Part shown: positions 441 through 37,621 of the stretch, one piece after another
Numbering within the stretch: the stretch's first letter is position 1
Layout: the number at the start of each line of letters is the position of its first letter
Assembly (NCBI GenBank): GCA_030390025.1
Contig: CM059432.1
Span: forward strand, 22,632,001-22,696,000
Direction of reading: 5' to 3'
Origin: Squalus acanthias
Taxonomy: Eukaryota
DNA: 64,000 bases
Made by a program: the position numbers and the translations under genes
Notes under the pieces: generated by a model
What the model saw: only the letters and a program-made list of their open reading frames with translations
What the model was told of the DNA's origin: nothing
The model's database searches: none

Positions 441-763
441 CCAGTCCTAGCATCCATATTCATCTTAATTAACTTATCCATATGGACTGAATCCAAGCCC
501 TTCATTTTATTGAAAACAACAACAACAACTTACATTTATATAGCACCTTTAATGTAGTAAAATATCCCAAGGCGCAAACCTCAGTCATATACCCTCTGAC
601 CTTATATTCCTCTGAAGTAAATACTCCAACTCTTAAAATATGCCCTAATAATAAGCCCTTAATACATAGATACTTAGATACATAGAAGATAGGAGCAGGA
701 GTAGGCCATCCGGCCCTTCGAGCCTGCTCCGCCATTTAATGAGATCATGGCTGATCCTCCAAT

Positions 764-3714
764 TCAGTATCCCGTCCCCGCCTTCTCTCCGTAACCCTTA
801 ACCCCTTTTGCCTGTAGAAATATATCTAATTCCCTCTTAAATATATTTAATGAGCTGGCGTACACTGCCCTCTGCGGCAATGAGTTCCACAGGTTCACCA
901 CCCTCTGAGTGAAGAATTTCCCCCTCATTTCTGTCCTAAATGGTTTAGCCCTTATCCTTAAATTATGTCCTCTAGTTCTGTTCTCACCCGCCAAGGGAAA
1001 CATTCCTTCTGCATCTAGTCTGTCTAGACCTGTCAGAATTTTATACACTTCTATGAGGTCCCCTCTCAATCTTCTAAACTCCAGTGTGTACATCCCTAAA
1101 CTACACAGTCTCTCCTCATAGGTCAATCCCGCCATTCCTGGTATCAGCCTGGTGAATCGCCGCTGCACCCCCTCCATGGCAAGAACATCTTTCCTCAGAT
1201 GAGGCGACCAAAACTGTACACAGTACTCGAGGTGTGGTCTCACCAGTGCCCTGTACAGCTGCAGCAAGGTATCCCTGTTCCTGTATTCCAACCCTTTTGC
1301 TATGAAGGCCAGCATACTGTTTGCCTTCTTGACCGCCTGTTGCACCTGCATGCTCGCCTTCAGTGACTGGTGTACAAGAACACCCAGGTCTCTCTGTACT
1401 TCCCCCTCTCCCAATTTATTGCCATTTAAATAATAATTTGCCCTCCTGTTCCTGCACCCAAGGTGGATAACTTCGCACTTGTCCACATTATAGTGCATCT
1501 GCCATTTATCCGCCCAATCACCCAGTCTGTCCAAATCGCTCTGGAGCTTCCTGGTCTCCTCCTCTGAGCCCACCCCCCCTCCTAGTTTAGTGTCGTCTGC
1601 AAATTTGGAAATGCTGCATCCGACTCCCTGATCCAGGTCATTAATGTAAATTGTGAACAGCTGGGGACCCAGGACAGATCCCTGTGGTACCCCACTTGTT
1701 ACTGCCTGCCATTCAGAAAATGAGCCGTTTATTCCAACTCTCTGTTTTCTATCTGACAGCCAGTTCTCTATCCACGTCAATACTTTCCCCTTTATCCCAT
1801 GAGCTTCAATTTTCCATGCTAATCTTTTATGCGGGACCTTATCGAAGGCCTTTTGGAAGTCCAGGTACACCACATCTACTGGCTCTCCCCCATCTATTTT
1901 ACCAGTTACTCCCTCAAAAAATTCCAATAGATTAGTCAAGCACGATTTACCCTTTGTAAATCCATGTTGACTCTGTCCTATCCTGTCCCCATTTGCTAAG
2001 TGCTCCGCTATTTCATCCTTAATGATGGACTCCAGCATTTTGCCCACAACTGATGTAAGGCTTACAGGTCTGTAATTACCTGCTTTTTCCCTACCCCCCT
2101 TTTTGAATAGTGGGTAACGTTAGCTACCCTCCAATCCATGGGCACTTTTCCCGAGTCTAATGAATTCTGAAAAATCATACTTAGTGCATCCGCTATCTCT
2201 AGGGCCACCTCCTTCAGTACCGTAGGATGCATGTTATCAGGCCCTGGGGATTTGTCCGCCTTCAATCCCTTTAGCTTCCTTAACACCATATCCTTAGAGA
2301 TATTGATTTGCGTCAGTTCCTCCTTTGCCAATGTCCCTATTTTTCCCGATATCCCAGGGAGGTTTTTTGTGTCTTCCTTCGTAAAGACTGACCCAAAGTA
2401 TGCATTTAGTTGGTCTGCCATTTCCTTATTTCCCGTTATATATTCCCCCGTATCTGACTGCAATGGACCAACTTTGGTTTTCACCAGTCTTTTCCTCTTG
2501 ATATACTTATAAAAGCTTTTGGAGTTAGTTTTTATATTTTCCGCCAGCTTGCTTTCGTAAGCTATTTTGCCCCTCTTGATTAAGCCCTTTGTCCTCCTTT
2601 GCTCCATCTTAAACTGTTCTCAATCTTCCGCTCTGGCGCTTTTTTTGGCTATTTTATACGCCCTATCTTTGGATTTTATGCTGTCTCTAATTTCCCCTGT
2701 TATCCACGGTTGAGTCACCTTTTTAGATTTCCTTTTATGCCAGATTGGTATAAACAATTTTTGCAATTTTGTCATTCTATCTTTAAATGCTTGCCATTGT
2801 TTATCTACCTCCAGTCCTCCCAGGAACGTTGTCCAATCAGACCTACTCAGTTCCCGTCTAATGGCATCATAATTCCCCTTGTTTAAATTCAGGACCTTAG
2901 TCTCTGAGTCAATTTCTTCGCTCTCCATTTCGAGTGAGAAATCGATCATGTTATGATCGCTCTGACCCAAGGGTCCCCGTACAACAAGATTACTAATTAG
3001 TCCCTTCTCATTGCACAGTACCCAGTCCAATATAGCCTGTTCCCGAGTTGGTTCCTCGACATATTGATCCAGATAACCATCCCTTAAACACTCAAGGAAT
3101 TCCTCCTCCTCATTATTTTTACTGATTAGGCTAGTCCAATCTATATGTAAGTTAAAGTCACCTATGATGACAGCTGTGCTCTTATTGCACGCTTCTCTAA
3201 TTTCCCTCGTGATGCCCTCCCCAACCTCTATTTTACTATTTGGAGGCCTATATACCACTCCTATTAATGTTTTTCGCCCCTCGCTATTTCTTAGCTCCAC
3301 CCATGCAGATTCTGTATTAACTGAGTTAATATCCTTCCTTTCAATTGCATTTATCCCCTCTTTTACCAGCAATGCTACCCCTCCTCCCTTTCTTTTTTGT
3401 CGATCCTTCCTAAATACTGAATACCCCTGTATGTTAAGCTCCCAGCCCTGCTCACCCTGCAACCATGTTTCCGTAATCCCAATTAGATCATAATTATTAA
3501 CCTCTATTTCCACAGCTAATTCATCTACCTTGTTCCTGATGCTTCTCGCATTAAGGTATAAAACCCTCAGGCTTTTTTTATGCTCATATTTTTTATGAAT
3601 TAGTTTGGCCCTTTGTTTTTTGTTCCTCACCCTTTTACCATTTATTTCTGTCTGCCTTTCACTTTCCTCTATTTCACTACATAGGTTTCTAGCCCGCTGC
3701 CATACTAGTTTAAA
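764..3714 (-). pseudogene. CR1 ORF2 (AP endonuclease + reverse transcriptase), disrupted
   Basis: Compared with copy B: TGG>TGA nonsense at 2620-2622 and a 1-bp deletion near 2112 (TGGGTAAC vs TGGGGTAAC); motifs LNARS, ETW, GDFN, SDH, QGSVLGP, FADD. Confidence 0.93.
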
Positions 3715-4652
3715 TGCTCCCGAACTGCTTTATCAAAAATTACCCCGAGAACATCAGTTCCATCTTTGCACAGGTGTAGACCGTCCCTTTTGTATAGGTC
3801 ACACCTACCACAAAACTGGTTCCAATGCCTCAAAAATTTAAAACCCTCCCTCTTACACCACTGCTCAAGCCACGTATTTAGCCTAACTATCCTGTTCTCT
3901 GTACTCTTACTAGCACGTGGCACTGGTAGTAATCCAGAGATTACTACCTTCGAGGTCCTACTTTTTAGCTTGGCTCCTAACTCCCTAAATTCTACTTGTA
4001 GGACCTCTTCCCTTTTTTTAGCTACGTCGTTGGTACCAACATGTATCACGACAACTGGCTGTTCCCCCTCCCCCTCCAGAATGTTCTGCACCCGCGCCGA
4101 GACATCCTTGACCCTTGCACCAGGGAGGCAACATACCATCCTGGAGTCTCGGTCGCGACCACAGAAACCCCTATCTATTCCCCTTACAATCGAATCCCCT
4201 ATTACTATAGCCCTGCCACTCTTTTTCCCTCCCTTCTTTGCAACAGAGCCAGTCATGGTGCCATGAGCCTGGCTGCTGGTGCCTTCCCCCGATGAGTCAT
4301 CCCCCCCGACAACAGCACCTAAGGCGGTGAACCTGTTGCTAAGGGAGACAACCCCAGGGGATTTCTGCACTACCTTCCTGCCCTTGCTCTGCCTTTTGGT
4401 CACCCATGTACTATCTACGCTGGCCTTAACCTGCGGTGTGACCAACTCACTAAATGTGCTATCCACAACCCTCTCAGAATCGTGGATGCTCCAAAGTGAG
4501 TCCATCCGCAGCTCAAGGGCCGTCATGCGGTCCCACATGAGCTGCAGCTGGACACACTTCCCGCACACATGGTTGTCAGGGACACAGGAAGCGTCCCTGA
4601 TTTCCCACATATTACAGGAGGAGCATGACACAGGTCCGAGCTCTACTGCCAT
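3705..4652 (-). CDS. CR1 ORF1 protein: N-terminal CxxC/CxxC zinc finger, coiled coil, SGNH esterase domain
   Basis: 315-aa open ATG ORF; CSSC...CGKC, LSNRF, GDS, GTND and DGLH motifs. Confidence 0.92.
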   Translation of the reverse strand: MAVELGPVSCSSCNMWEIRDASCVPDNHVCGKCVQLQLMWDRMTALELRMDSLWSIHDSERVVDSTFSELVTPQVKASVDSTWVTKRQSKGRKVVQKSPGVVSLSNRFTALGAVVGGDDSSGEGTSSQAHGTMTGSVAKKGGKKSGRAIVIGDSIVRGIDRGFCGRDRDSRMVCCLPGARVKDVSARVQNILEGEGEQPVVVIHVGTNDVAKKREEVLQVEFRELGAKLKSRTSKVVISGLLPVPRASKSTENRIVRLNTWLEQWCKREGFKFLRHWNQFCGRCDLYKRDGLHLCKDGTDVLGVIFDKAVREHLN

Positions 4653-5093
4653 GACTTAACCCTTATATTACTTTTTAATTTTCTAGTTTTAGTTTATTTA
4701 TTGACTTTTGTTTTCCCGAAGCTTACTTAGACCAATGTATACTGTACTCCTCTTATTCCTTTTTAAACTAACCAAATCCCACTAGTTTTAGTTTTACTTT
4801 CTAGGAAGGTTTGAGGAAAGTACTTACCAGTTAGTTTTACCTCCCTGGTCTTTCGCTGACTTCCCGGTCTTGTGTCCCCTTGGTCCTATGCCGACTTCCC
4901 GCTCCTCCCGGTTCCTGCCCTGCTGAAAAGAAACTGAGACCAAAAAATTTGTGACCTCTGTTTTTAGACTGCTAAAAGACTAGTAGGTTAGAGGAGGAGG
5001 GCGGGTGGGGGTTCCTACTCTGTAGGAACTCAGGTTTAAGCCACCACCCTCCTTAAATGCCATTCACCTGGGTGCTTCCCACCTGGTCCGCTT

Positions 5094-5639
5094 CCGGTCT
5101 TGTCTCTCCCGACAACAGCCTGTGAAAGAAAAGCCCGCGAAAGTTAGTTCAAATACTCACAGGACCTCCGGTCTCGTCTCTCCCGACAACAGCCTGTGAA
5201 AGAAAAGCCCGCGAAAGTGAGTTCAAATACTCACAGGACCTCCGGTCTCGTCTCTCCCGACAACAGCCTGTGAAAGAAAAGCCCGCGAAAGTGAGTTCAA
5301 ATACTCACAGGACCTCCGGTCTCGTCTCTCCCGACAACAGCCTGTGAAAGAAAAGCCCGCGAAAGTGAGTTCAAATACTCACAGGACCTCCGGTCTCGTC
5401 TCTCCCGACAACAGCCTGTGAAAGAAAAGCCCGCGAAAGTGAGTTCAAATACTCACAGGACCTCCGGTCTCATCTCTCCCGACAACAGCCTGTGAAAGAA
5501 AAGCCCGCGAAAGTGAGTTCAAATACTCACAGGACCTCCGGTCTCGTCTCTCCCGACAACAGCCTGTGAAAGAAAAGCCAGCGAAAGTGAGTTCAAATAC
5601 TCACAGGACCTCCGGTCTCGTCTCTCCCGACAACAGCCT
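5094..5639 (-). repeat. 74-bp tandem monomer array at the 5' end of CR1 copy A (~7.4 copies)
   Basis: Unit CCGGTCTCGTCTCTCCCGACAACAGCCTGTGAAAGAAAAGCCCGCGAAAGTGAGTTCAAATACTCACAGGACCT starts at 5094, 5168, 5242, 5316 and onward. Confidence 0.97.
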
Positions 5640-22417: not shown

Positions 22418-23710
22418 GCAAAGTCAACACGGATTTATGAAAGGGAAATCGTGTTTGATAAATCTGTGACTAGCAGAATAGACAAGGGGGAGCCAGTGGA
22501 TGTGGTGTATTTGGATTTTCAGAAGGCATTCGATAAGGTGCCACACAAGAGGTTATTAAACAAAATTAGGGCTCATGGGACTGGGGGTAATATATTAGCA
22601 TTGATTGAGGATTGGTTAACGGACAAAAAACAGAGAGTAGGAATAAATGGGTCATTTTCGGGTTGGCAGGCTGTAACTAGTGGGGTACCGCAAGGATCAG
22701 TGCTTGGGCCTCAGCTATTGACAATCTACATCAATGATTTGTATGAGGGGACCAAATGTAATATATCCAAGTTTGCTGATGATACAAAGTTGGGTGGGAA
22801 TGTAAGTTGTGAGGAGGATGCAAGGAGGCTTCAAGGGGATATAGACAGGCTAAGTGATAGGGCAAGAACATATCAAATGGAATATAATGTGGAGAAATGT
22901 GAAGTTATCCACTTTGGTAGGAAAAATAGAAAAATAGAAAAGCTGAGTATTTTTAAATGATGAGAGATTGGGAAATGTTGGTGTTCAGAGGGACCTGGGT
23001 GTCCTTGTACACAAATCACTGAAAGTTAACATGCAGGTACAGCAAGCAATTAGGAAAGCAAATGGTATGTTGACCTTTATTACAAGAGGATTTGAGTATA
23101 AGAGTAAAGACGTTTTACTGCAATTATATAGCGCCCTGGTGAGACCACACCTGGAGTATTGTGTACAGTTTTGGTCTCCTTACCTAAGGAAGGATATACT
23201 TGCCATAGAGGGAGTGCAACGAAGGTTCACCAGACAGGTTCCTAGGATGGGGAAATTGTCCGATGAGGAGAGATTGAGTAGACTCGGCCTATATTCTCTA
23301 GAGTTTAGAAGAATGAGAGGTGATCTCATTGAAACATACAAAATTCTTACAGGGTTTGACAGGATAGATGCAGGGATAGGATGTTTTCCCTGGCTGGGGA
23401 GTCTAGAACCAGGGGTCACAGTCTCAGAATAAGGGATCTGCCATTTAGGACTGAGATGAGGAGAAATTCCTTCACTCAGAGGGCGGTGAATCTTTGGAAT
23501 TCTCTGCCCCAGAGGGCTGTGGAGGCTCAGTCATTAAGTATACTCAAGACAGAGATCGATAGATTTTTGAATATCAAGGGAATCAAGGGATATGGGAATA
23601 GTTCAGGAAAGTGGAGATACATAGATACATAGAAGATAGGAGCAGGAGTAGGCCATCCGGCCCTTCGAGCCTGCTCCGCCATTTAATGAGATCATGGCTG
23701 ATCCTCCAAT

Positions 23711-26662
23711 TCAGTATCCCGTCCCCGCCTTCTCTCCGTAACCCTTAACCCCTTTTGCCTGTAGAAATATATCTAATTCCCTCTTAAATATATTTAATGA
23801 GCTGGCGTACACTGCCCTCTGTGGCAATGAGTTCCACAGGTTCACCACCCTCTGAGTGAAGAAATTCCCCCTCATTTCTGTCCTAAATGGTTTAGCTCTT
23901 ATCCTTAAATTATGTCCTCTAGTTCTGTTCTCACCCGCCAAGGGAAACATTCCTTCTGCATCTAGTCTGTCTAGACCTGTCAGAATTTTATACACTTCTA
24001 TGAGGTCCCCTCTCAATCTTCTAAACTCCAGTGTGTACATCCCTAAACTACATAGTCTCTCCTCATAGGTCAATCCCGCCATTCCTGGTATCAGCCTGGT
24101 GAATCGCCGCTGCACCCCCTCCATGGCAAGAACATCTTTCCTCAGATGAGGCGACCAAAACTGTACACAGTACTCGAGGTGTGGTCTCACCAGTGCCCTG
24201 TACAGCTGCAGCAAGGTATCCCTGTTCCTGTATTCCAACCCTTTTGCTATGAAGGCCAGCATACCGTTTGCCTTCTTGATCGCCTGTTGCACCTGCATGC
24301 TCGCCTTCAGTGACTGGTGTACAAGAACACCCAGGTCTCTCTGTACTTCCCCCTCTCCCAATTTATTGCCATTTAAATAATAATTTGCCCTCCCGTTCCT
24401 GCACCCAAGGTGGATAACTTCGCACTTGTCCACATTATAGTGCATCTGCCATTTATCCGCCCAATCACCCAGTCTGTCCAAATCGCTCTGGAGCTTCCTG
24501 GTCTCCTCCTCTGAGCCCACCCCCCCTCCTAGTTTAGTGTCGTCTGCAAATTTGGAAATGCTGCATCCGACTCCCTGATCCAGGTCATTAATGTAAATTG
24601 TGAACAGCTGGGGACCCAGGACAGATCCCTGTGGTACCCCACTTGTTACTGCCTGCCATTCAGAAAATGAGCCGTTTATTCCAACTCTCTGTTTTCTATC
24701 TGACAGCCAGTTCTCTATCCACGTCAATACTTTCCCCTTTATCCCATGAGCTTCAATTTTCCCTGCTAATCTTTTATGTGGGACCTTATCGAAGGCCTTT
24801 TGGAAGTCCAGGTACACCACATCTACTGGCTCTCCCCCATCTATTTTACCAGTTACTCCCTCAAAAAATTCCAATAGATTAGTCAAGCACGATTTACCCT
24901 TTGTAAATCCATGTTGACTCTGTCCTATCCTGTCCCCATTTGCTAAGTGCTCCGCTATTTCATCCTTAATGATGGACTCCAGCATTTTGCCCACAACTGA
25001 TGTAAGGCTTACAGGTCTGTAATTACCTGCTTTTTCCCTACCCCCCTTTTTGAATAGTGGGGTAACGTTAGCTACCCTCCAATCCATGGGCACTGTTCCC
25101 GAGTCTAATGAATTCTGAAAAATCATACTTAGTGCATCCGCTATCTCTAGGGCCACCTCCTTCAGCACCCTAGGATGCATGTTATCAGGCCCTGGGGATT
25201 TGTCCGCCTTCAATCCCTTTAGCTTCCTTAACACCATATCCTTAGAGATATTGACTTGCGTCAGTTCCTCCTTTGCAAATGTCCCTATTTTTCCCGATAT
25301 CCCAGGGAGGTTTTTTGTGTCTTCCTTCGTAAAGACTGACCCAAAGTATGCATTTAGTTGGTCTGCCATTTCCTTATTTCCCGTTATATATTCCCCCGTA
25401 TCTGACTGCAATGGGCCAACTTTGGTTTTCACCAGTCTTTTCCTCTTGATATACTTATAAAAGCTTTTGGAGTTAGTTTTTATATTTTCCGCCAGCTTGC
25501 TTTCGTAAGCTATTTTGCCCCTCTTGATTAAGCCCTTTGTCCTCCTTTGCTCTATCTTAAACTGTTCCCAATCTTCCGCTCTGGCGCTTTTTTTGGCTAT
25601 TTTATACGCCCTATCTTTGGATTTTATGCTGTCTCTAATTTCCCCTGTTATCCACGGTTGAGTCACCTTTTTAGATTTCCTTTTATGCCAGATTGGTATA
25701 AACAATTTTTGCAATTTTGTCATTCTATCTTTAAATGCTTGCCATTGTTTATCTACCTCCAGTCCTCCCAGGAACGTTGTCCAATCAGACCTACTCAGTT
25801 CCCGTCTAATGGCATCATAATTCCCCTTGTTTAAATTCAGGACCTTAGTATCTGAGTCAATTTCTTCGCTCTCCATTTCGAGTGAGAAATCGATCATGTT
25901 ATGATCGCTCTGACCCAAGGGTCCCCGTACAACAAGATTACTAATTAGTCCCTTCTCATTGCACAGTACCCAGTCCAATATAACCTGTTCCCGAGTTGGT
26001 TCCTCGACATATTGATCCAGATAACCACCCCTTAAACACTCAAGGAATTCCTCCTCCTCATTATTTTTACTGATTAGGCTATTCCAATCTATATGTAAGT
26101 TAAAGTCACCTATGATGACAGCTGTGCTCTTATTGCACGCTTCTCTAATTTCCCTCGTGATGCCCTCCCCAACCTCTATTTTACTATTTGGAGGCCTATA
26201 TACCACTCCTATTAATGTTTTTCGCCCCTCGCTATTTCTTAGCTCCACCCATATAGATTCTGTATTAACTGAGTTAATATCCTTCCTTTCAATTGCATTT
26301 ATCCCTTCTTTTACCAGCAATGCTACCCCTCCTCCCTTTCTTTTTTGTCGATCCTTCCTAAATACTGAATACCCCTGTATGTTAAGCTCCCAGCCCTGCT
26401 CACCCTGCAACCATGTTTCCGTAATCCCAATTAGATCATAATTATTAACCTCTATTTCCACAGCTAATTCATCTACCTTGTTCCTGATGCTTCTCGCATT
26501 AAGGTATAAAACCCTCAGGCTTTTTTTATGCTCACATTTTTTATGAATTAGTTTGGCCCTTTGTTTTTTGTTCCTCACCCTTTTACCATTTATTTCTGTC
26601 TGCCTTTCACTTTCCTCTATTTCACTACATAGGTTTCTAGCCCGCTGCCATACTAGTTTAAA
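23711..26662 (-). CDS. CR1 ORF2: AP endonuclease + reverse transcriptase (no initiator ATG; probably entered by -1 frameshift)
   Basis: Frame open from the TTTAAAC at 26662-26656 to the stop at 23711; LNARS, ETW, GDFN, SDH, QGSVLGP, FADD; track start at 26578 is GTG. Confidence 0.93.
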   Translation of the reverse strand, partial: FKLVWQRARNLCSEIEESERQTEINGKRVRNKKQRAKLIHKKCEHKKSLRVLYLNARSIRNKVDELAVEIEVNNYDLIGITETWLQGEQGWELNIQGYSVFRKDRQKRKGGGVALLVKEGINAIERKDINSVNTESIWVELRNSEGRKTLIGVVYRPPNSKIEVGEGITREIREACNKSTAVIIGDFNLHIDWNSLISKNNEEEEFLECLRGGYLDQYVEEPTREQVILDWVLCNEKGLISNLVVRGPLGQSDHNMIDFSLEMESEEIDSDTKVLNLNKGNYDAIRRELSRSDWTTFLGGLEVDKQWQAFKDRMTKLQKLFIPIWHKRKSKKVTQPWITGEIRDSIKSKDRAYKIAKKSARAEDWEQFKIEQRRTKGLIKRGKIAYESKLAENIKTNSKSFYKYIKRKRLVKTKVGPLQSDTGEYITGNKEMADQLNAYFGSVFTKEDTKNLPGISGKIGTFAKEELTQVNISKDMVLRKLKGLKADKSPGPDNMHPRVLKEVALEIADALSMIFQNSLDSGTVPMDWRVANVTPLFKKGGREKAGNYRPVSLTSVVGKMLESIIKDEIAEHLANGDRIGQSQHGFTKGKSCLTNLLEFFEGVTGKIDGGEPVDVVYLDFQKAFDKVPHKRLAGKIEAHGIKGKVLTWIENWLSDRKQRVGINGSFSEWQAVTSGVPQGSVLGPQLFTIYINDLDQGVGCSISKFADDTKLGGGVGSEEETRKLQSDLDRLGDWADKWQMHYNVDKCEVIHLGCRNGRANYYLNGNKLGEGEVQRDLGVLVHQSLKASMQVQQAIKKANGMLAFIAKGLEYRNRDTLLQLYRALVRPHLEYCVQFWSPHLRKDVLAMEGVQRRFTRLIPGMAGLTYEERLCSLGMYTLEFRRLRGDLIEVYKILTGLDRLDAEGMFPLAGENRTRGHNLRIRAKPFRTEMRGNFFTQRVVNLWNSLPQRAVYASSLNIFKRELDIFLQAKGVKGYGEKAGTGY

Positions 26663-27600
26663 TGCTCCCGAACTGCTTTATCAAAAATTACCCCGAGAAC
26701 ATCAGTTCCATCTTTGCACAGGTGTAGACCGTCCCTTTTGTATAGGTCACACCTACCACAAAACTGGTTCCAATGCCTCAAAAATTTAAAACCCTCCCTC
26801 TTACACCACTGCTCAAGCCACGTATTTAGCCTAACTATCCTGTTCTCTGTACTCTTACTAGCACGTGGCACTGGTAGTAATCCAGAGATTACTACCTTCG
26901 AGGTCCTACTTTTTAGCTTGGCTCCTAACTCCCTAAATTCTACTTGTAGGACCTCTTCCCTTTTTTTAGCTACGTCGTTGGTACCAACATGTATCACGAC
27001 AACTGGCTGTTCCCCCTCCCCCTCCAGAATGTTCTGCACCCGCGCCGAGACATCCTTGACCCTTGCACCAGGGAGGCAACATACCATCCTGGAGTCTCGG
27101 TCGCGACCACAGAAACTCCTATCTATTCCCCTTACAATCGAATCCCCTATTACTATAGCCCTGCCACTCTTTTTCCCTCCCTTCTTTGCAACAGAGCCAG
27201 TCATGGTGCCATGAGCCTGGCTGCTGGTGCCTTCCCCCGATGAGTCATCCCCCCCGACAACAGCACCTAAGGCGGTGAACCTGTTGCTAAGGGAGACAAC
27301 CCCAGGGGATTTCTGCACTACCTTCCTGCCCTTGCTCTGCCTTTTGGTCACCCATGTACTATCTACGCTGGCCTTAACCTGCGGTGTGACCAACTCACTA
27401 AATGTGTTATCCACAACCCTCTCAGAATCGTGGTTGCTCCAAAGTGAGTCCATCCGCAGCTCAAGGGCCGTCATGCGGTCCCACATGAGCTGCAGCTGGA
27501 CACACTTCCCGCACACATGGTTGTCAGGGACACAGGAAGCGTCCCTGATTTCCCACATGTTACAGGAGGAGCATGACACAGGTCCGAGCTCTACTGCCAT
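26653..27600 (-). CDS. CR1 ORF1 protein (zinc finger, coiled coil, SGNH esterase)
   Basis: 315-aa ATG ORF with GDS, GTND, DGLH. Confidence 0.93.
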   Translation of the reverse strand: MAVELGPVSCSSCNMWEIRDASCVPDNHVCGKCVQLQLMWDRMTALELRMDSLWSNHDSERVVDNTFSELVTPQVKASVDSTWVTKRQSKGRKVVQKSPGVVSLSNRFTALGAVVGGDDSSGEGTSSQAHGTMTGSVAKKGGKKSGRAIVIGDSIVRGIDRSFCGRDRDSRMVCCLPGARVKDVSARVQNILEGEGEQPVVVIHVGTNDVAKKREEVLQVEFRELGAKLKSRTSKVVISGLLPVPRASKSTENRIVRLNTWLEQWCKREGFKFLRHWNQFCGRCDLYKRDGLHLCKDGTDVLGVIFDKAVREHLN

Positions 27601-28046
27601 GACTTAACCCTTATATTACTTTTTAATTTTCTAGTTTTAGTTTATTTATTGACTTTTGTTTTCCCGAAGCTTACTTAGACCAATGTATACTGTACTCCTC
27701 TTATTCCTTTTTAAACTAACCAAATCCCACTAGTTTTAGTTTTACTTTCTAGGAAGGTTTGAGGAAAGTACTTACCAGTTAGTCTTACCTCCCTGGTCTT
27801 TCGCTGACTTCCCGGTCTTGTGTCCCCTTGGTCCTACGCCGACTTCCCGCTCCTCCCGGTTCCTGCCCTGCTGAAAAGAAACTGAGACCAAAAAATTTGT
27901 GACCTCTGTTTTTAGACTGCTAAAAGACTAGTAGGTTAGAGGAGGAGGGCGGGTGGGGGTTCCTACTCTGTAGGAACTCGGGTTTAAGCCACCACCCTCC
28001 TTAAATGCTGTTCACCTGGGTGCTTCCCACCTGGTCCGCTTCCGGT

Positions 28047-28597
28047 CTCTCCGCTCCCGACACTGGCCTCTGCAAAAAAAGCCCGCGAAAGTGAGTTTAA
28101 ATACTCACTGTGCTGCTGCTCTCTCCGCTCCCGACACTGGCCTCTGCAAAAAAAGCCCGCGAAAGTGAGTTTAAATACTCACTGTGCTGCTGCTCTCTCC
28201 GCTCCCGACACTGGCCTCTGCAAAAAAAGCCCGCGAAAGTGAGTTTAAATACTCACTGTGCTGCTGCTCTCTCCGCTCCCGACACTGGCCTCTGCAAAAA
28301 AAGCCCGCGAAAGTGAGTTTAAATACTCACTGTGCTGCTGCTCTCTCCGCTCCCGACACTGGCCTCTGCAAAAAAAGCCCGCGAAAGTGAGTTTAAATAC
28401 TCACTGTGCTGCTGCTCTCTCCGCTCCCGACACTGGCCTCTGCAAAAAAAGCCCGCGAAAGTGAGTTTAAATACTCACTGTGCTGCTGCTCTCTCCGCTC
28501 CCGACACTGGCCTCTGCAAAAAAAGCCCGCGAAAGTGAGTTTAAATACTCACTGTGCTGCTGCTCTCTCCGCTCCCGACACTGGCCTCTGCAAAAAA
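28047..28597 (-). repeat. 74-bp tandem monomer array at the 5' end of CR1 copy B (~7.4 copies)
   Basis: Unit CTCTCCGCTCCCGACACTGGCCTCTGCAAAAAAAGCCCGCGAAAGTGAGTTTAAATACTCACTGTGCTGCTGCT, period 74. Confidence 0.97.
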
Positions 28598-33226: not shown

Positions 33227-33615
33227 CACAGAGGCGGCGGACCTGGGTGGAGCAGCTGCGGCGAGGCGGAGGACTCAAGAGGCGGCGGCGACCAGGTAGG
33301 CCCACAGAGGCGGCGGACCTGGGTGGAGCGGCTGCGGCGAGGCGGAGGACTCAAGAGGTGGCGGCGACCAGGTAGGCCCACAGAGGCGGCGGACCTGGGT
33401 GGAGCGGCTGCGGCGAGGCGGAGGACTCAAGAGGCGGCGGCGACCAGGTAGGCCCACAGAGGCGGCGGACCTGGGTGGAGCAGCTGCGGCGAGGCGGAGG
33501 ACTCAAGAGGCGGCGGCGACCAGGTAGGCCCACAGAGGCGGCGGACCTGGGTGGAGCGGCTGCGGCGAGGCGGAGGACTCAAGAGGCGGCGGCGACCAGG
33601 TAGGCCCACAGAGGC
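33227..33615 (+). repeat. 76-bp GC-rich tandem monomer array at the 5' end of CR1 copy C (~5.1 copies)
   Basis: Unit CACAGAGGCGGCGGACCTGGGTGGAGC(A/G)GCTGCGGCGAGGCGGAGGACTCAAGAGGCGGCGGCGACCAGGTAGGCC at 33227, 33303, 33379 and onward. Confidence 0.96.
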
Positions 33616-33811
33616 TTTTAAAGTGCGGGACGCAGTGGTTGCTGGGTAGGTGATTAATTTTTACCTGTATATAAGTTCGGCGGTTCCTAAACCCGAGACA
33701 CTACACTTGTAGTGTCCCCCACCCTTCCTCCTCCTCTAACCTAAAGGAGGTGAGTGACTATCAGGTAAGCTCTTTTTTGTTCTCGTTGAATCTGCAAGTT
33801 AGCTGGAGGGG

Positions 33812-34737
33812 ATGGCAGGGGAGGCAGTGAAATGTTCCTCCTGCAGAATGTTTGAGGTGAGGGACGCCGTAGGTGTCCCTGCTGATTACACCTGTGGGAA
33901 GTGCACCCATCTCCAGCTCCTCGAAAACCGTGTTAGGGAACTGGAGCTGGAGCTGGATGAACTTCGGATCATTCGGGAGGCAGAGGAGGTCATAGATAGA
34001 AGCTTCAGGGATGTAATTACTCCAAAGCATGAAGATAGATGGGTGACGGTGAGAGGGGCTAGGAGGAAGCAGTCAGTGCAGGGATCCTCTGTGGTCGTTC
34101 CCCTCAGTAACAGGTATACCGCTTTGAATACTGTTGAGTGGGACGACTTACCAGTGGTAAGCCATGGTGACCGGATCTCCGGCGCTGGGTCCGTCCCTGT
34201 GGCTCAGAAGGGAAGGGGGGAGAGCAGGAGAGCAATAGTTATTGGGGACTCAATAGTCAGAGGGACAGATAGGAGGTTCTGTGGCAGCAAAAGAGACTCA
34301 CGGATGGTATGTTGCCTCCCGGGTGCCAGGGTCCGTGACGTCTCGGACCGTGTTTTCAGAATCCTCAAAGGGGAGGGGAACAATCGCAAGTCGTGGTACT
34401 CCTCGGTACCAACGACATAGGTAGGAGAAGGGACGGGGATTTAAAACAGGAATTTAGGGAGCTAGGTTGGAAGCTGAGAGCCAGTACAAACCATGTTGTA
34501 ATTTCTGGTTTGTTGCCGGTGCCACGTGCTAGCGAGTTGAGGAACAGGGAGAGAGTGCAGATAAACACGTGGCTGCAGGGATGGTGCAGCGGGGAGGGTT
34601 TCAGTTATGTGGATAATTGGAGCACATTCTGGGGAAGGTGGGACCTGTACAAACAGGACGGTTTGCACCTGAACCAGAGGGGCACCAATATCCTGGGAGG
34701 GAAATTTGCTACGGCTCTTCGGGGGGGTTTAAACTAA
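33812..34737 (+). pseudogene. CR1 ORF1 (zinc finger + SGNH esterase), one frameshift near 34375
   Basis: ORFs 33812-34420 and 34393-34737 are consecutive halves (GDS; then GTND, DGLH). Confidence 0.9.
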
Positions 34738-37621
34738 TTTGTCAGGGGGATGGGAAAAAGGGCTGTAGTCCAGGAGCCAGTGGTGAGTGTAGGGAGGTAC
34801 TGAGGAGGGTATCAAGGTCGCAGGAATGTACCGGCAGACAGGAAGATGGCTTGAAGTGTGTCTACTTCAATGCAAGGAGCATCCGGAATAAGGTAGGAGA
34901 ACTTGGAGCGTGGATTGGTACTTGGGACTACGATGTGGTGGCCATTACGGAGACATGGTTAGAACAGGGACAGGAATGGTTGTTGGAAGTTCCGGGGTAT
35001 AGATGTTTCTGTAAGAGTAGGGAAGTTGGTAAGAAAGGTGGAGGAGTAGCATTGTTAATCAAGGATAGTTTAACAGCGGCAGAAAGGCAGTTCGAGGGGG
35101 ATCTGCCGTCTGAGGTAATATGGGCTGAAGTTAGAAATAGGAAAGGAGCGGTCACGTTGTTAGGAGTTTTCTACAGGCCCCCAAATAGTAATAGAGATGT
35201 GGAGGAAGAAATTGCAAAGCAGATTATGAATAGGTGTGGAGGTCACAGAGTAGTTGTCATGGGTGACTTCAACTTTCCAAATATTGATTGGAACCTTTAT
35301 AGGTCAAACAGTTCGGATGGGATAGTTTTTGCACAGTGTGTGCAGGACGGTTTCCTGACACAATATGTGGATAGGCCGACAAGAGCTGGGGCCACGTTGG
35401 ATTTGGTACTGGGTAATGAATCGGGCCAAGTGTTTGATTTGTATGTGGGAGAGCACTTTGGAGATAGTGACCACAATTCGGTAACTTTCACTATTGCAAT
35501 GGAGAGAGATAGGGCCATACGGCAGGGCAGGGTTTATAATTGGGGGAGGGGTAATTATGATGCGATTAGGCAAGAATTAGGGAGTATAAGATGGGAACAG
35601 AAACTATCAGGGAAAGGCACAAACGAAAAGTGGAGCTTTTTCATGGAGCAATTACTGCGTGTCCTTGATAGGTATGTCCCTGTCAGGCAGGGAGGAAATG
35701 GCTGAGTGAGAGAACCATGGTTCACAAAAGAGGTTGAATGTCTAGTCAAGAGGAAAAAGGAAGCGTATGTAAGGATGAGAAAACAAGGTTCAGTTGGGTC
35801 GATTGAGGGGTACAAGGTAGCAAGGAATGAGCTAAAAAAAGAGCTTAGGAGAGCTAGGAGGGGGCATGAGAAGTCCTTGGCGGGTCGGATCAAGAAAAAC
35901 CCCAAGGCCTTTTACTCTTATGTGAGAAATAAAAGAATGACCAGGGTGAGGGTAGGGCCGGTCAAGGACAGTAGTGGGAACTTGTGCATGGAGTCAGAAG
36001 AGATAGGAGAGGTGATGAATGAATACTTTTTGTCAGTGTTCACCGAGGAGAGGGGCCATGTTCTTGAGGATGAGAGTGTGATAAAGGTGGATAGGCTGGA
36101 GGTGGTAGATGTTCTGAGGGAAGATGTTTTAGCAATTTTGAAGAACCTGAGGGTCGATAAGTCCCCTGGGCCAGATGGGATATATCCTAGGATTCTTTGG
36201 GAGGCAAGGGAGGAGATTGCAGAGCCTCTGGCTTTGATCTTTGGGTCCTCACTGTCCACGGGAATGGTGCCAGAGGACTGGAGAGTGGTGAATGTTGTTC
36301 CTCTCTTCAAGAAAGGAAATAGGAATGACCCTGGTAATTATAGGCCGGTTAGTCTTACTTCGGTGGTTGGTAAGATAATGGAAAAGGTCCTGAGGGATAG
36401 GATTTATGACCATTTGGAAAGGGGCAACTTAATCAGGGATAGTCAACACGGATTCGTGAAGGGTAAGTCTTGCCTAACAAATTTGATTGAATTCTTTGAG
36501 GAGGTAACTAAGTGTGTAGATGAAGGTAGAGCAGTTGATGTCGTATACATGGATTTTAGTAAGGCGTTTGATAAGGTTCCCCATGGTCGGCTCATGAAGA
36601 AAGTAAGGAGTTGTGGGATAGAGGGAAATTTGGCCGATTGGATAAGTAACTGGCTATCTCATAGAAGGCAGAGGGTGGTGGTGGATGGAACATTTTCGGA
36701 CTGGAGACCAGTTACCAGCGGTGTGCCACAGGGGTCGGTGCTGGGTCCTCTGCTGTTTGTGATTTTTATCAATGACTTGGAGGAGGGGACTGAAGGGTGG
36801 ATCAGTAAATTTGCTGATGACACCAAGATTGGTGGAGCAGTGGATGAGGTGGAGGGCTGTTGTAGGCTGCAAAGAGACATTGATAGGATGCAGAGCTGGG
36901 CTGAAAAATGGCAGATGGAATTTAACCATTAAGTGCGAGGTGATTCATTTTGGTAGGGCAAATTTGAATAAGGATTACAGGGTCAACGGCAGGGTTCTGA
37001 GGAACGTGGAGGAGCAGAGGGATCTGGGGGTTCATATCCACAGATCTCCGAAGGTTGCCACTCAAGTGGATAGAGCAGTAAAGAAGGCCTATGGTGTGTT
37101 GGCGTTTATTAACAGAGGGTTTGAGTTTAAGAACCGTGAGGTTATGCTGCAACTGTACAGGACCTTGGTGAGACCACATTTGGAATATTGTGTGCAGTTC
37201 TGGTCACCTCACTATAGGAAGGACGTGGAAGCATTGGAAAGAGTGCAAAGGAGATTTACCAGGATGCTGCCTGGTTTGGGGGGGAGGTCTTATGAGGAAA
37301 GATTGAGGGAGTTGAGGCTTTTCTCTTTAGATGAGAGGCGACTTAATAGAGGTTTATAAGATGATGAGGGGGATAGATAGAGTGGATGTTCAGAGACTAT
37401 TTCCTCGGGTAGAGGCAGCTGTTACAAGGGGGCATAACTATAAGGTGCATGGGGGGAGATATAGAAGGGATGTCCGAGGTAGATTCTTTACTCAGAGAGT
37501 GGTTGGGGTGTGGAATGGACTGCCTGGTGTGATAGTGGAGTCGGACACTTTAGGAACTTTCAAGCGGTTATTGGATAAGCACATGGAGCACACCAGAGTG
37601 ATAGGGAGTGTGATAGCTTGA
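34728..37621 (+). pseudogene. CR1 ORF2 (APE-RT), disrupted
   Basis: Stop at 35703-35705; frame breaks near 36930 and 37335; FNARS, GDFN, SDH, FADD. Confidence 0.92.

Follow-up and report, generated by a model that had tools for sequence, protein, structure and literature searches.

Three CR1 LINE copies with retained 5′ UTRs (A, B and C, Table 1) lie in the window analysed here, a stretch of 64,000 nucleotides from Squalus acanthias, and share a 56-nt module that combines a predicted hairpin with an adjacent C-rich tail. The question raised by this locus is whether the module is a selected structured element and, if so, whether it acts as RNA or as DNA.

Copies A and B belong to the same family and are 96.8% identical overall. 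Copy C represents a separate family, which is 66% (ORF1 DNA) and 64% (reverse transcriptase, RT, DNA) identical to B and almost identical to the published consensus SquAca_CR1-7 over the 400 bases compared. The nearest named relatives of ORF1 are shark and ray proteins carrying an SGNH esterase domain, and the combination of PF13472 in these relatives with a following endonuclease-RT ORF2 is the one that defines CR1 elements with an esterase ORF1. Copy B, with both frames open from stop to stop (316 codons in ORF1 and 988 in ORF2) and nearly identical monomers, is a young and possibly intact element; ORF2 of copy A is broken. The array ends were taken as the element ends, and no target-site duplications were found by eye around the three copies. 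Profile scans with ORF1 confirmed none of 110 metagenome candidates, none of 48 viral candidates and one of 56 from prokaryote genomes. The single confirmed candidate, on a 506-nt contig from a bacterial assembly (L001:182-426), matches the esterase part of CR1 ORF1 at 39%. This contig and P0009, an entry labelled Pseudomonas aeruginosa that is 57% identical to shark ORF1, may both be contamination.

The 5′ ends of the three elements are located 24, 29 and 34 nt past an AT-rich or TATA-like word of the monomer (5632-5639, 28580-28597 and 33227), a spacing which suggests that the monomers are promoters and that the TATA-like word in the array sets the start. With the monomers read as promoters, the module is within transcribed sequence, 461-611 nt inside the elements as measured from the array ends of A, B and C, in a slot at the start of the tether between monomer array and ORF1. 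Judged by their sequences, promoter arrays demonstrably swap between CR1 families: in the published part of SquAca_CR1-15b that was compared, monomers like those of copy C (33227-33615) precede a CRE/CCAAT tether and an ORF1 whose start differs. Within the monomers, hairpins are repeatedly predicted in which a 5′ splice-site word and its complementary arm enclose a loop that is AT-rich and often TATA-like. The arms differ between families with pairing kept, which makes these hairpins a second candidate covarying element. The monomers of A and B also contain what we take to be an E2F-like word, with a presumed ETS-like word just past the array (28035-28045).

Table 1. Features of the three CR1 copies, numbered from the first base of the window
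Feature	Position	Strand	Remark
CR1 copy A	about 668-5639	-	5′ UTR retained
Conserved module, copy A	4984..5038	-	B family; CpG decayed
Monomer array of copy A	5093..5639	-	74-nt unit, 7.4 copies
CR1 copy B	about 23615-28597	-	5′ UTR retained
ORF2 of copy B	23711..26677	-	open, 988 aa; RT motifs visible in translation
ORF1 of copy B	26653..27600	-	open; relatives with SGNH esterase family PF13472
Double 5′ splice-site-like cassette, copy B	27765..27792	-	about 140 nt downstream of module
Conserved module, copy B	27932..27986	-	stem 27977-27959, three adjacent two-sided changes
Monomer array of copy B	28046..28597	-	74-nt unit, 7.5 copies
CR1 copy C	from 33227	+	5′ UTR retained
Monomer array of copy C	33227..33615	+	76-nt unit, 5.1 copies, 5′ end
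TATA-like box	33668..33675	+	29 nt before stem
Candidate small upstream helix	33676..33696	+	GGG with CCC around A-rich loop; C at 33678 in copy C, G in the family
Conserved module, copy C	33688..33743	+	family matching SquAca_CR1-7
Hairpin, 8 bp and 4-nt loop	33697..33716	+	predicted; loop variable, variant at 33708
C-rich tail	33717..33741	+	CCCACCC block, 2 free bases, CCTCC block, CTAACC; unpaired in copy C folds; opposite strand G4-prone
Double 5′ splice-site-like cassette, copy C	33746..33775	+	with U-rich run, common to B
ORF1 of copy C	33812..34735	+	esterase-type family, frameshifted
ORF2 of copy C	34716..37606	+	endonuclease and reverse transcriptase, in pieces
Monomer splice-site hairpins	28046-28597 and 5093-5639 (-), 33645-33666 (+)		predicted; also in the published parts of RhiTyp, ScyCan and CarCar consensuses compared

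Local alignment of the B and C 5′ UTRs picks out the module as the top-scoring segment (score 55), and none of 1000 dinucleotide shuffles scored above 33. The initial annotation had placed it correctly in copy C; in B and A the modules are present but start one base away from where they had been put, at 27986 and 5038, and copy A, described as almost the same as B, departs from it by a C>T change in a CpG of the 5′ flank. The near invariance noted for the flanks was confirmed, since 34 of the 36 bases outside stem and loop are identical between A/B and C, compared with 64-66% for coding DNA. The three compensatory swaps in the stem proved real as well, with pairing in all 24 cells (three copies by 8 bp) and three pairs changed on both sides, though these changes sit at adjacent pairs 2-4. 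In a shuffling control of the stem pairing, which has three rows only, 21 of 500 shuffles did equally well. One template switch within a hairpin can yield several adjacent compensatory changes, and the three swaps may be a single event of this kind; because they are adjacent, they are not independent evidence, and the window by itself argues only weakly for selection.

A profile of the three modules detected no fourth copy in the 64-kb window (next match at E = 0.5). The remainder of the UTR had been described as not aligning between the families, which holds for the upstream part once the module is removed but not for the downstream part, where the 5′ splice-site cassette of ~30 nt aligns between B and C with a score of 24; among 300 mononucleotide shuffles, one scored as high. 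In copy C, only about 30 nt separate the cassette from the following tract that ends in AG, too short a distance for an ordinary vertebrate intron.

Homologues in published shark CR1 consensuses

The shark CR1 consensuses considered here carry the codes CarCar, RhiTyp, ScyCan and SquAca, which we take to denote white shark, whale shark, catshark and spiny dogfish, respectively. They were obtained from the supplement of PMC13343379, where the first 400 characters of each consensus were read by eye and with motif searches, giving 87 shark CR1 rows (24 CarCar, 16 RhiTyp, 23 ScyCan and 24 SquAca). The full module was found in at least 10 of these rows, distributed over all four species (CarCar-2 and -23; RhiTyp-2a, -7, -8 and -11; ScyCan-7a, -11a and -16; SquAca-7). 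Two partial rows, RhiTyp-2b and RhiTyp-6b, start inside it, making at least 12 in a set where many rows begin within ORFs and some UTRs extend beyond 400 characters. The module was absent among the CR1 rows listed for CalMil (0/6), LeuEri (0/6), HypSab (0/10) and PriPec (0/10), and exact-word searches over the whole supplement returned no ray CR1 row. Motif scans of viral and metagenome contigs gave 0 matches.

Within the same 400-character range, most CR1 families are without the module. Four rows that run from monomer to ORF1 without it (SquAca-9, SquAca-15b, ScyCan-19 and CarCar-14) presumably have CRE/CCAAT-like words in its slot, and the module is thus exchangeable with a tether of this type. 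The contexts surrounding the published modules are mostly unalignable between families; SquAca-7 and ScyCan-11a are similar along the whole tether, beyond the module. Contigs over 33560-33900 revealed a further family, from two coded organisms, which matches 33662-33742 between different flanks and carries GC-box and CCAAT words upstream of the module; it has 11 differing letters, 3 of them placed in run X17. Loop base 33708 and tail base 33729 vary among the contigs. Contig ends at 33697/33699 are accounted for by the neighbouring variants 33667 and 33729 and are uninformative on starts or cleavage. Contigs from two runs that are guessed to be RNA span the module, a weak indication, and no splice joint was present among the contigs over 33560-33900.

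The stem pairs were tallied over 11 families, namely the 10 published ones and B, as plain counts made by eye on the consensus parts covered. All 11 families keep the stem, with 6-10 contiguous pairs and eight different loops of 3-5 nt. At 33697/33716, five families have a G-C pair, four have A-U (ScyCan-7a, ScyCan-16, CarCar-2 and CarCar-23) and two have A-C (RhiTyp-2a and RhiTyp-8). One position further out, eight families have A-U, while A-C is found in SquAca-7/C, B/A and ScyCan-11a, the last of which has lost two stem-base nucleotides. CarCar-2 and -23 have a U-G pair within the stem. An extra 4-bp helix is found upstream at a fixed position in ScyCan-7a, ScyCan-16, CarCar-2 and CarCar-23; its pairing is kept, with one pair that is U-G in CarCar versus C-G. 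Nine of the 11 families have a GGG that could form a small helix with the CCC preceding the stem; it is invariant and shows no covariation. Over the four species, the tail differs from that of copy C at 0-4 of 23 bases (two free positions excluded), and several of its variable positions lie between C runs. In three RhiTyp rows the palindrome is perfect and continues across the loop, and the CpG is retained in most families though it has decayed in the inserted copy A.

These comparisons point to at least two independent two-sided events, and to more if the triple in the window is not a single event, in addition to the wobble pairs and free loops. The earlier proposal of a selected structured element is therefore supported at the level of sequence comparison, mainly through the homologues (a kept stem with variable loop and length, a further two-sided change and U-G pairs), with the swaps in the window counting for perhaps one event.

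Folding, strand and comparison with known RNA classes

Folds of the isolated module had z-scores of -4.3 (C) and -2.7 (B) in the sense orientation and -4.0 (C) and -0.3 (B) in the antisense orientation, so that folding is significant in both orientations for C but only in sense for B. The tail, which carries three or more C patches, is unpaired in the sense 56-nt folds; in a 77-nt fold of copy B it pairs with G-rich sequence upstream, and in copy C its 3′ half is able to pair with downstream purines. Using 12 shuffles per element, the best duplex available to the tail within A and B was no better than for shuffled tails. One partner in copy C beat 12 of 12 shuffled tails, at a site that is not homologous to the A/B site, and with no homologous partner within the elements a long-range cis partner was rejected. 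Longer helices closing the module were judged by eye to be inconsistent between families on either strand. Wobble pairs inside the helices lean to the sense strand and those at the stem base to the antisense strand. Either strand may be the working one, since SquAca-7/C, B/A, RhiTyp-2a and RhiTyp-8 have stem-base A-C mismatches that would become G-U pairs in the complementary strand, and the antisense fold of copy C is about as good as the sense fold.

A search of the whole window against Rfam 15 (E ≤ 10) produced no match on the module, and local scans gave matches far below the gathering thresholds (best E 0.12), to different families for B and C; the module matches no family described there. 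The earlier judgement by eye that it does not fit hammerhead, HDV-like or twister cores also stands, as no known core uses the conserved bases. Hammerhead ribozymes have CUGANGA and GAAA around a three-way junction; these patterns are absent from both strands of three 281-nt regions, as are the core patterns of hairpin, hatchet and twister-sister ribozymes from the sequences scanned. Partial pistol-, twister- and HDV-like matches lie mostly on non-conserved flanks. HDV-like ribozymes form a nested double pseudoknot (P1/P1.1/P2/P3/P4) in which the catalytic C strand, with the consensus C-N-R-A, comes directly after P4; the similar word in the module is about 20 nt from the hairpin, and a loose HDV-like descriptor matches only non-conserved flanks that differ between families. 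Likeness to the 5S rRNA internal control region, the telomerase template and flavivirus 3′ motifs was partial and without Rfam support, and was set aside.

In R2, L1Tc and Perere-3, HDV-like and twister ribozymes are located where the element starts and fix its 5′ end (PMC6765202, PMC8501958), a location that differs from the internal one of the module. The twister core has an L4 word, GUCCCAAGC, closed by P4, and CUCC-GC and GGAG-GAGG strands in order (PMC8501958); copy B in sense has a partial L4-like word within its module, without a closing stem, and the opposite strand resembles the GGAG-GAGG half only. In the twister-sister-like LINE-1/OR4K15 ribozyme, a 5 x 6 internal loop and a CA cleavage site lie between two stems (PMC11620745). 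Loop-like words for this arrangement are present in the module by eye, and one flanking stem cannot form.

A U2 branch point has the form yUnAy and is followed by a pyrimidine tract and then an AG some 18-40 nt on. The word CTCTAAC in the tail, which had been matched to this consensus, fails as a branch point: only 7-8 nt lie between the putative branch A and the first AG, pyrimidines are clustered upstream instead of downstream, and CarCar-2 and -23 read CAAAC in the consensus parts covered, with the U at -2 lost.

Possible roles of the module and related systems

As a best explanation, held tentatively and at somewhat less than even likelihood, we propose a sense RNA leader with a putative poly(C)-binding-protein site ahead of a putative U1 site. 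A predicted hairpin whose loop sequence is free would keep the adjacent 25-nt C-rich strand unpaired, and the exposed strand would bind host poly(C)-binding KH proteins (PCBP1/2 and hnRNP K), with U1 recognizing the 5′ splice-site cassette just downstream. Together, the KH proteins and U1 would shield the long CR1 transcript, which is left unspliced, or clear it for use, and the outcome could be RNA stability, avoidance of premature termination, export or translation of ORF1. The presence of the hairpin but not its loop appears to matter, and a tail conserved base by base with no partner suggests that a protein binds there. In the number of its C patches, the tail fits established PCBP sites, which have three or more (PMC4937337); it is unpaired in the 56-nt folds and paired in the longer fold of B. 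The sequences show where the module lies, its conservation across families and species, a stem kept under loop and length change, a tail with no conserved cis partner and the nearby splice-site words; every step beyond this is inferred, namely a sense RNA as the acting strand, binding by KH proteins, and protection or productive handling of the unspliced CR1 RNA. The strict 2-nt gap between the C blocks, however, would be explained by a DNA-binding footprint or by G4 loops no less well than by binding of KH proteins.

The main rival to an RNA leader is a module acting in DNA near the promoter, which we regard as possible, if on the unlikely side. It would consist of a KLF/SP-type CCCACCC box and a CT-rich element behind the TATA-like box, or of a G4 and hairpin on the template or cDNA strand, and would tune transcription from the monomer promoters. 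The KLF/SP, CT-element and CRE/CCAAT factor motifs of this scheme are presumptive. The TATA-like motif initially noted ~30 nt before the stem is indeed found 29 nt upstream of it in both B and C, and an AT-rich box at 26-30 nt was seen by eye in seven of the 11 families, but it is missing from the other four. On the opposite strand the G4Hunter score of 1.76-1.92 is in the top 0.25% of the window and a two-tier G4 is predicted beside the hairpin of isolated 56-mers; once flanks are added, this G4 is no longer the predicted minimum. Consistent with a DNA module are also the variable tail positions between C runs, the GC box and CCAAT words in the further family seen in two runs, the CRE/CCAAT words in the same slot of module-free families, and the weak promoter activity, in both orientations, of mouse L1 tethers (PMC9022269). 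The stem-base mismatches, which become G-U or G-T on the opposite strand, are set against U-G pairs inside the helices that favour the sense strand. In addition, a dyad site for a protein would be expected to hold its sequence and spacing, whereas here stem sequence and loop length change.

It is quite improbable that the module has no selected function, with slow shark evolution and module exchange keeping the flanks alike and template switching repairing the stem as a quasi-palindrome. This would account for the adjacency of the three swaps in the window, the palindromic RhiTyp rows, the likeness of SquAca-7 and ScyCan-11a over the entire tether and the swapping of monomers between families (SquAca-15b). 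It accounts less readily for a tail with so few differences across four species and several unalignable contexts, for a CpG retained in most families and decayed in the inserted copy A, and for the pairing also retained in the extra helix.

Very unlikely, in our estimate, is an attenuator or 3′-end signal for short monomer-driven transcripts, whose A-rich end would be a template-switch point that grafts promoter cassettes onto other CR1 families. Although 5-9 A directly follow the module in five of the 10 full rows (RhiTyp-2a, -7 and -8, ScyCan-16 and CarCar-2, within the 400 characters), no long A run is present in B, C, ScyCan-11a, ScyCan-7a or RhiTyp-11, and full-length copies read through the module. 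In the same source, the A run of CarCar-23 begins two bases after the module, similarity between families usually stops at the A run, and that of ScyCan-16 is followed by a monomer-like unit and a second tether, all as expected for such a signal. A new class of small catalytic or switch RNA, internal and slowly self-cleaving or attenuating, which would separate promoter-bearing genomic RNA from a shorter translated RNA and be portable between CR1 lineages, is decidedly improbable.

Variable stems combined with single-stranded conservation at fixed spacing are the pattern of catalytic RNAs. The weakest reading, suggested in the initial annotation as an unrecognised ribozyme and here considered as a slow or regulated self-cleaving one of a new class that would release monomer-less RNA for translation, is highly improbable: the module shows that pattern, with a variable stem and an optional second stem at a fixed place, its tail ends (CUAA, CUGA and CAAA) fit the C-N-R-A strand and ribozymes are common in LINE 5′ UTRs (PMC6765202, PMC8501958, PMC11620745), but there is neither an Rfam match nor a known core on the conserved bases, matches with HDV topology use non-conserved flanks that differ per family, the conserved strand is nearly G-free with no conserved partner, and the upstream sequence kept in A, B and C implies that the retrotransposed RNA was uncut at this internal position.

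The literature search, which had most subscription journals and Repbase reports outside its coverage, found no description of the module, of a PCBP-type element in a CR1 5′ UTR or of how shark and ray CR1 5′ UTRs work, and a full-text search with the tail sequence returned one unrelated DNA-device paper. The module is real and apparently undescribed, a conserved LINE tether is a known kind of region, and the function proposed is putative. As a compact and portable unit with natural stem variants, the module is a ready test object for the role of LINE tethers. Should poly(C) proteins or U1 bind it, it would show how unspliced LINE RNA passes host RNA quality control; should it prove self-cleaving, a new ribozyme would be added to those of vertebrates.

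The spacer of the picornavirus 5′ cloverleaf and the 15-LOX DICE are poly(C)-binding-protein elements. PCBP/hnRNP K elements, with a single strand of three or more C patches beside a stem-loop (PMC4937337), resemble the module, in which the strand is predicted to be single in the 56-nt folds and the site is putative; the module differs from them in its unusually rigid C-block spacing. The 5′-UTR ribozymes of non-LTR elements (HDV-like in R2 and L1Tc, twister variants in Perere-3 and twister-sister-like in LINE-1) likewise are small RNA motifs upstream of the coding region with a sequence-free stem-loop (PMC6765202, PMC8501958, PMC11620745); unlike the HDV-like and twister forms, which set the element 5′ end, the shark module is internal, and the pattern scans found in it neither a catalytic core nor the topology of a pseudoknot.

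Among the chondrichthyan CR1 LINEs with an esterase ORF1, the host elements are ordinary members. CR1-group elements account for 22-34% of the genomes of sharks and rays (PMC13343379); that paper, in the sections covered, mentions repeating subunits near the 5′ UTR and not the module. Among the closest known systems, an analogue in architecture is the mouse L1 5′ UTR, where tandem monomers are followed by a non-repeated tether before ORF1 that is conserved across subfamilies with different monomers and whose mechanism is called unknown (PMC9022269). The shark CR1 5′ UTR has the same monomer-plus-tether architecture. Mouse L1 belongs to another LINE clade, and the sections of that paper covered here assign no RNA structure to its tether, whereas in shark CR1 a 56-nt structured core is shared and optional while the rest of the tether turns over.
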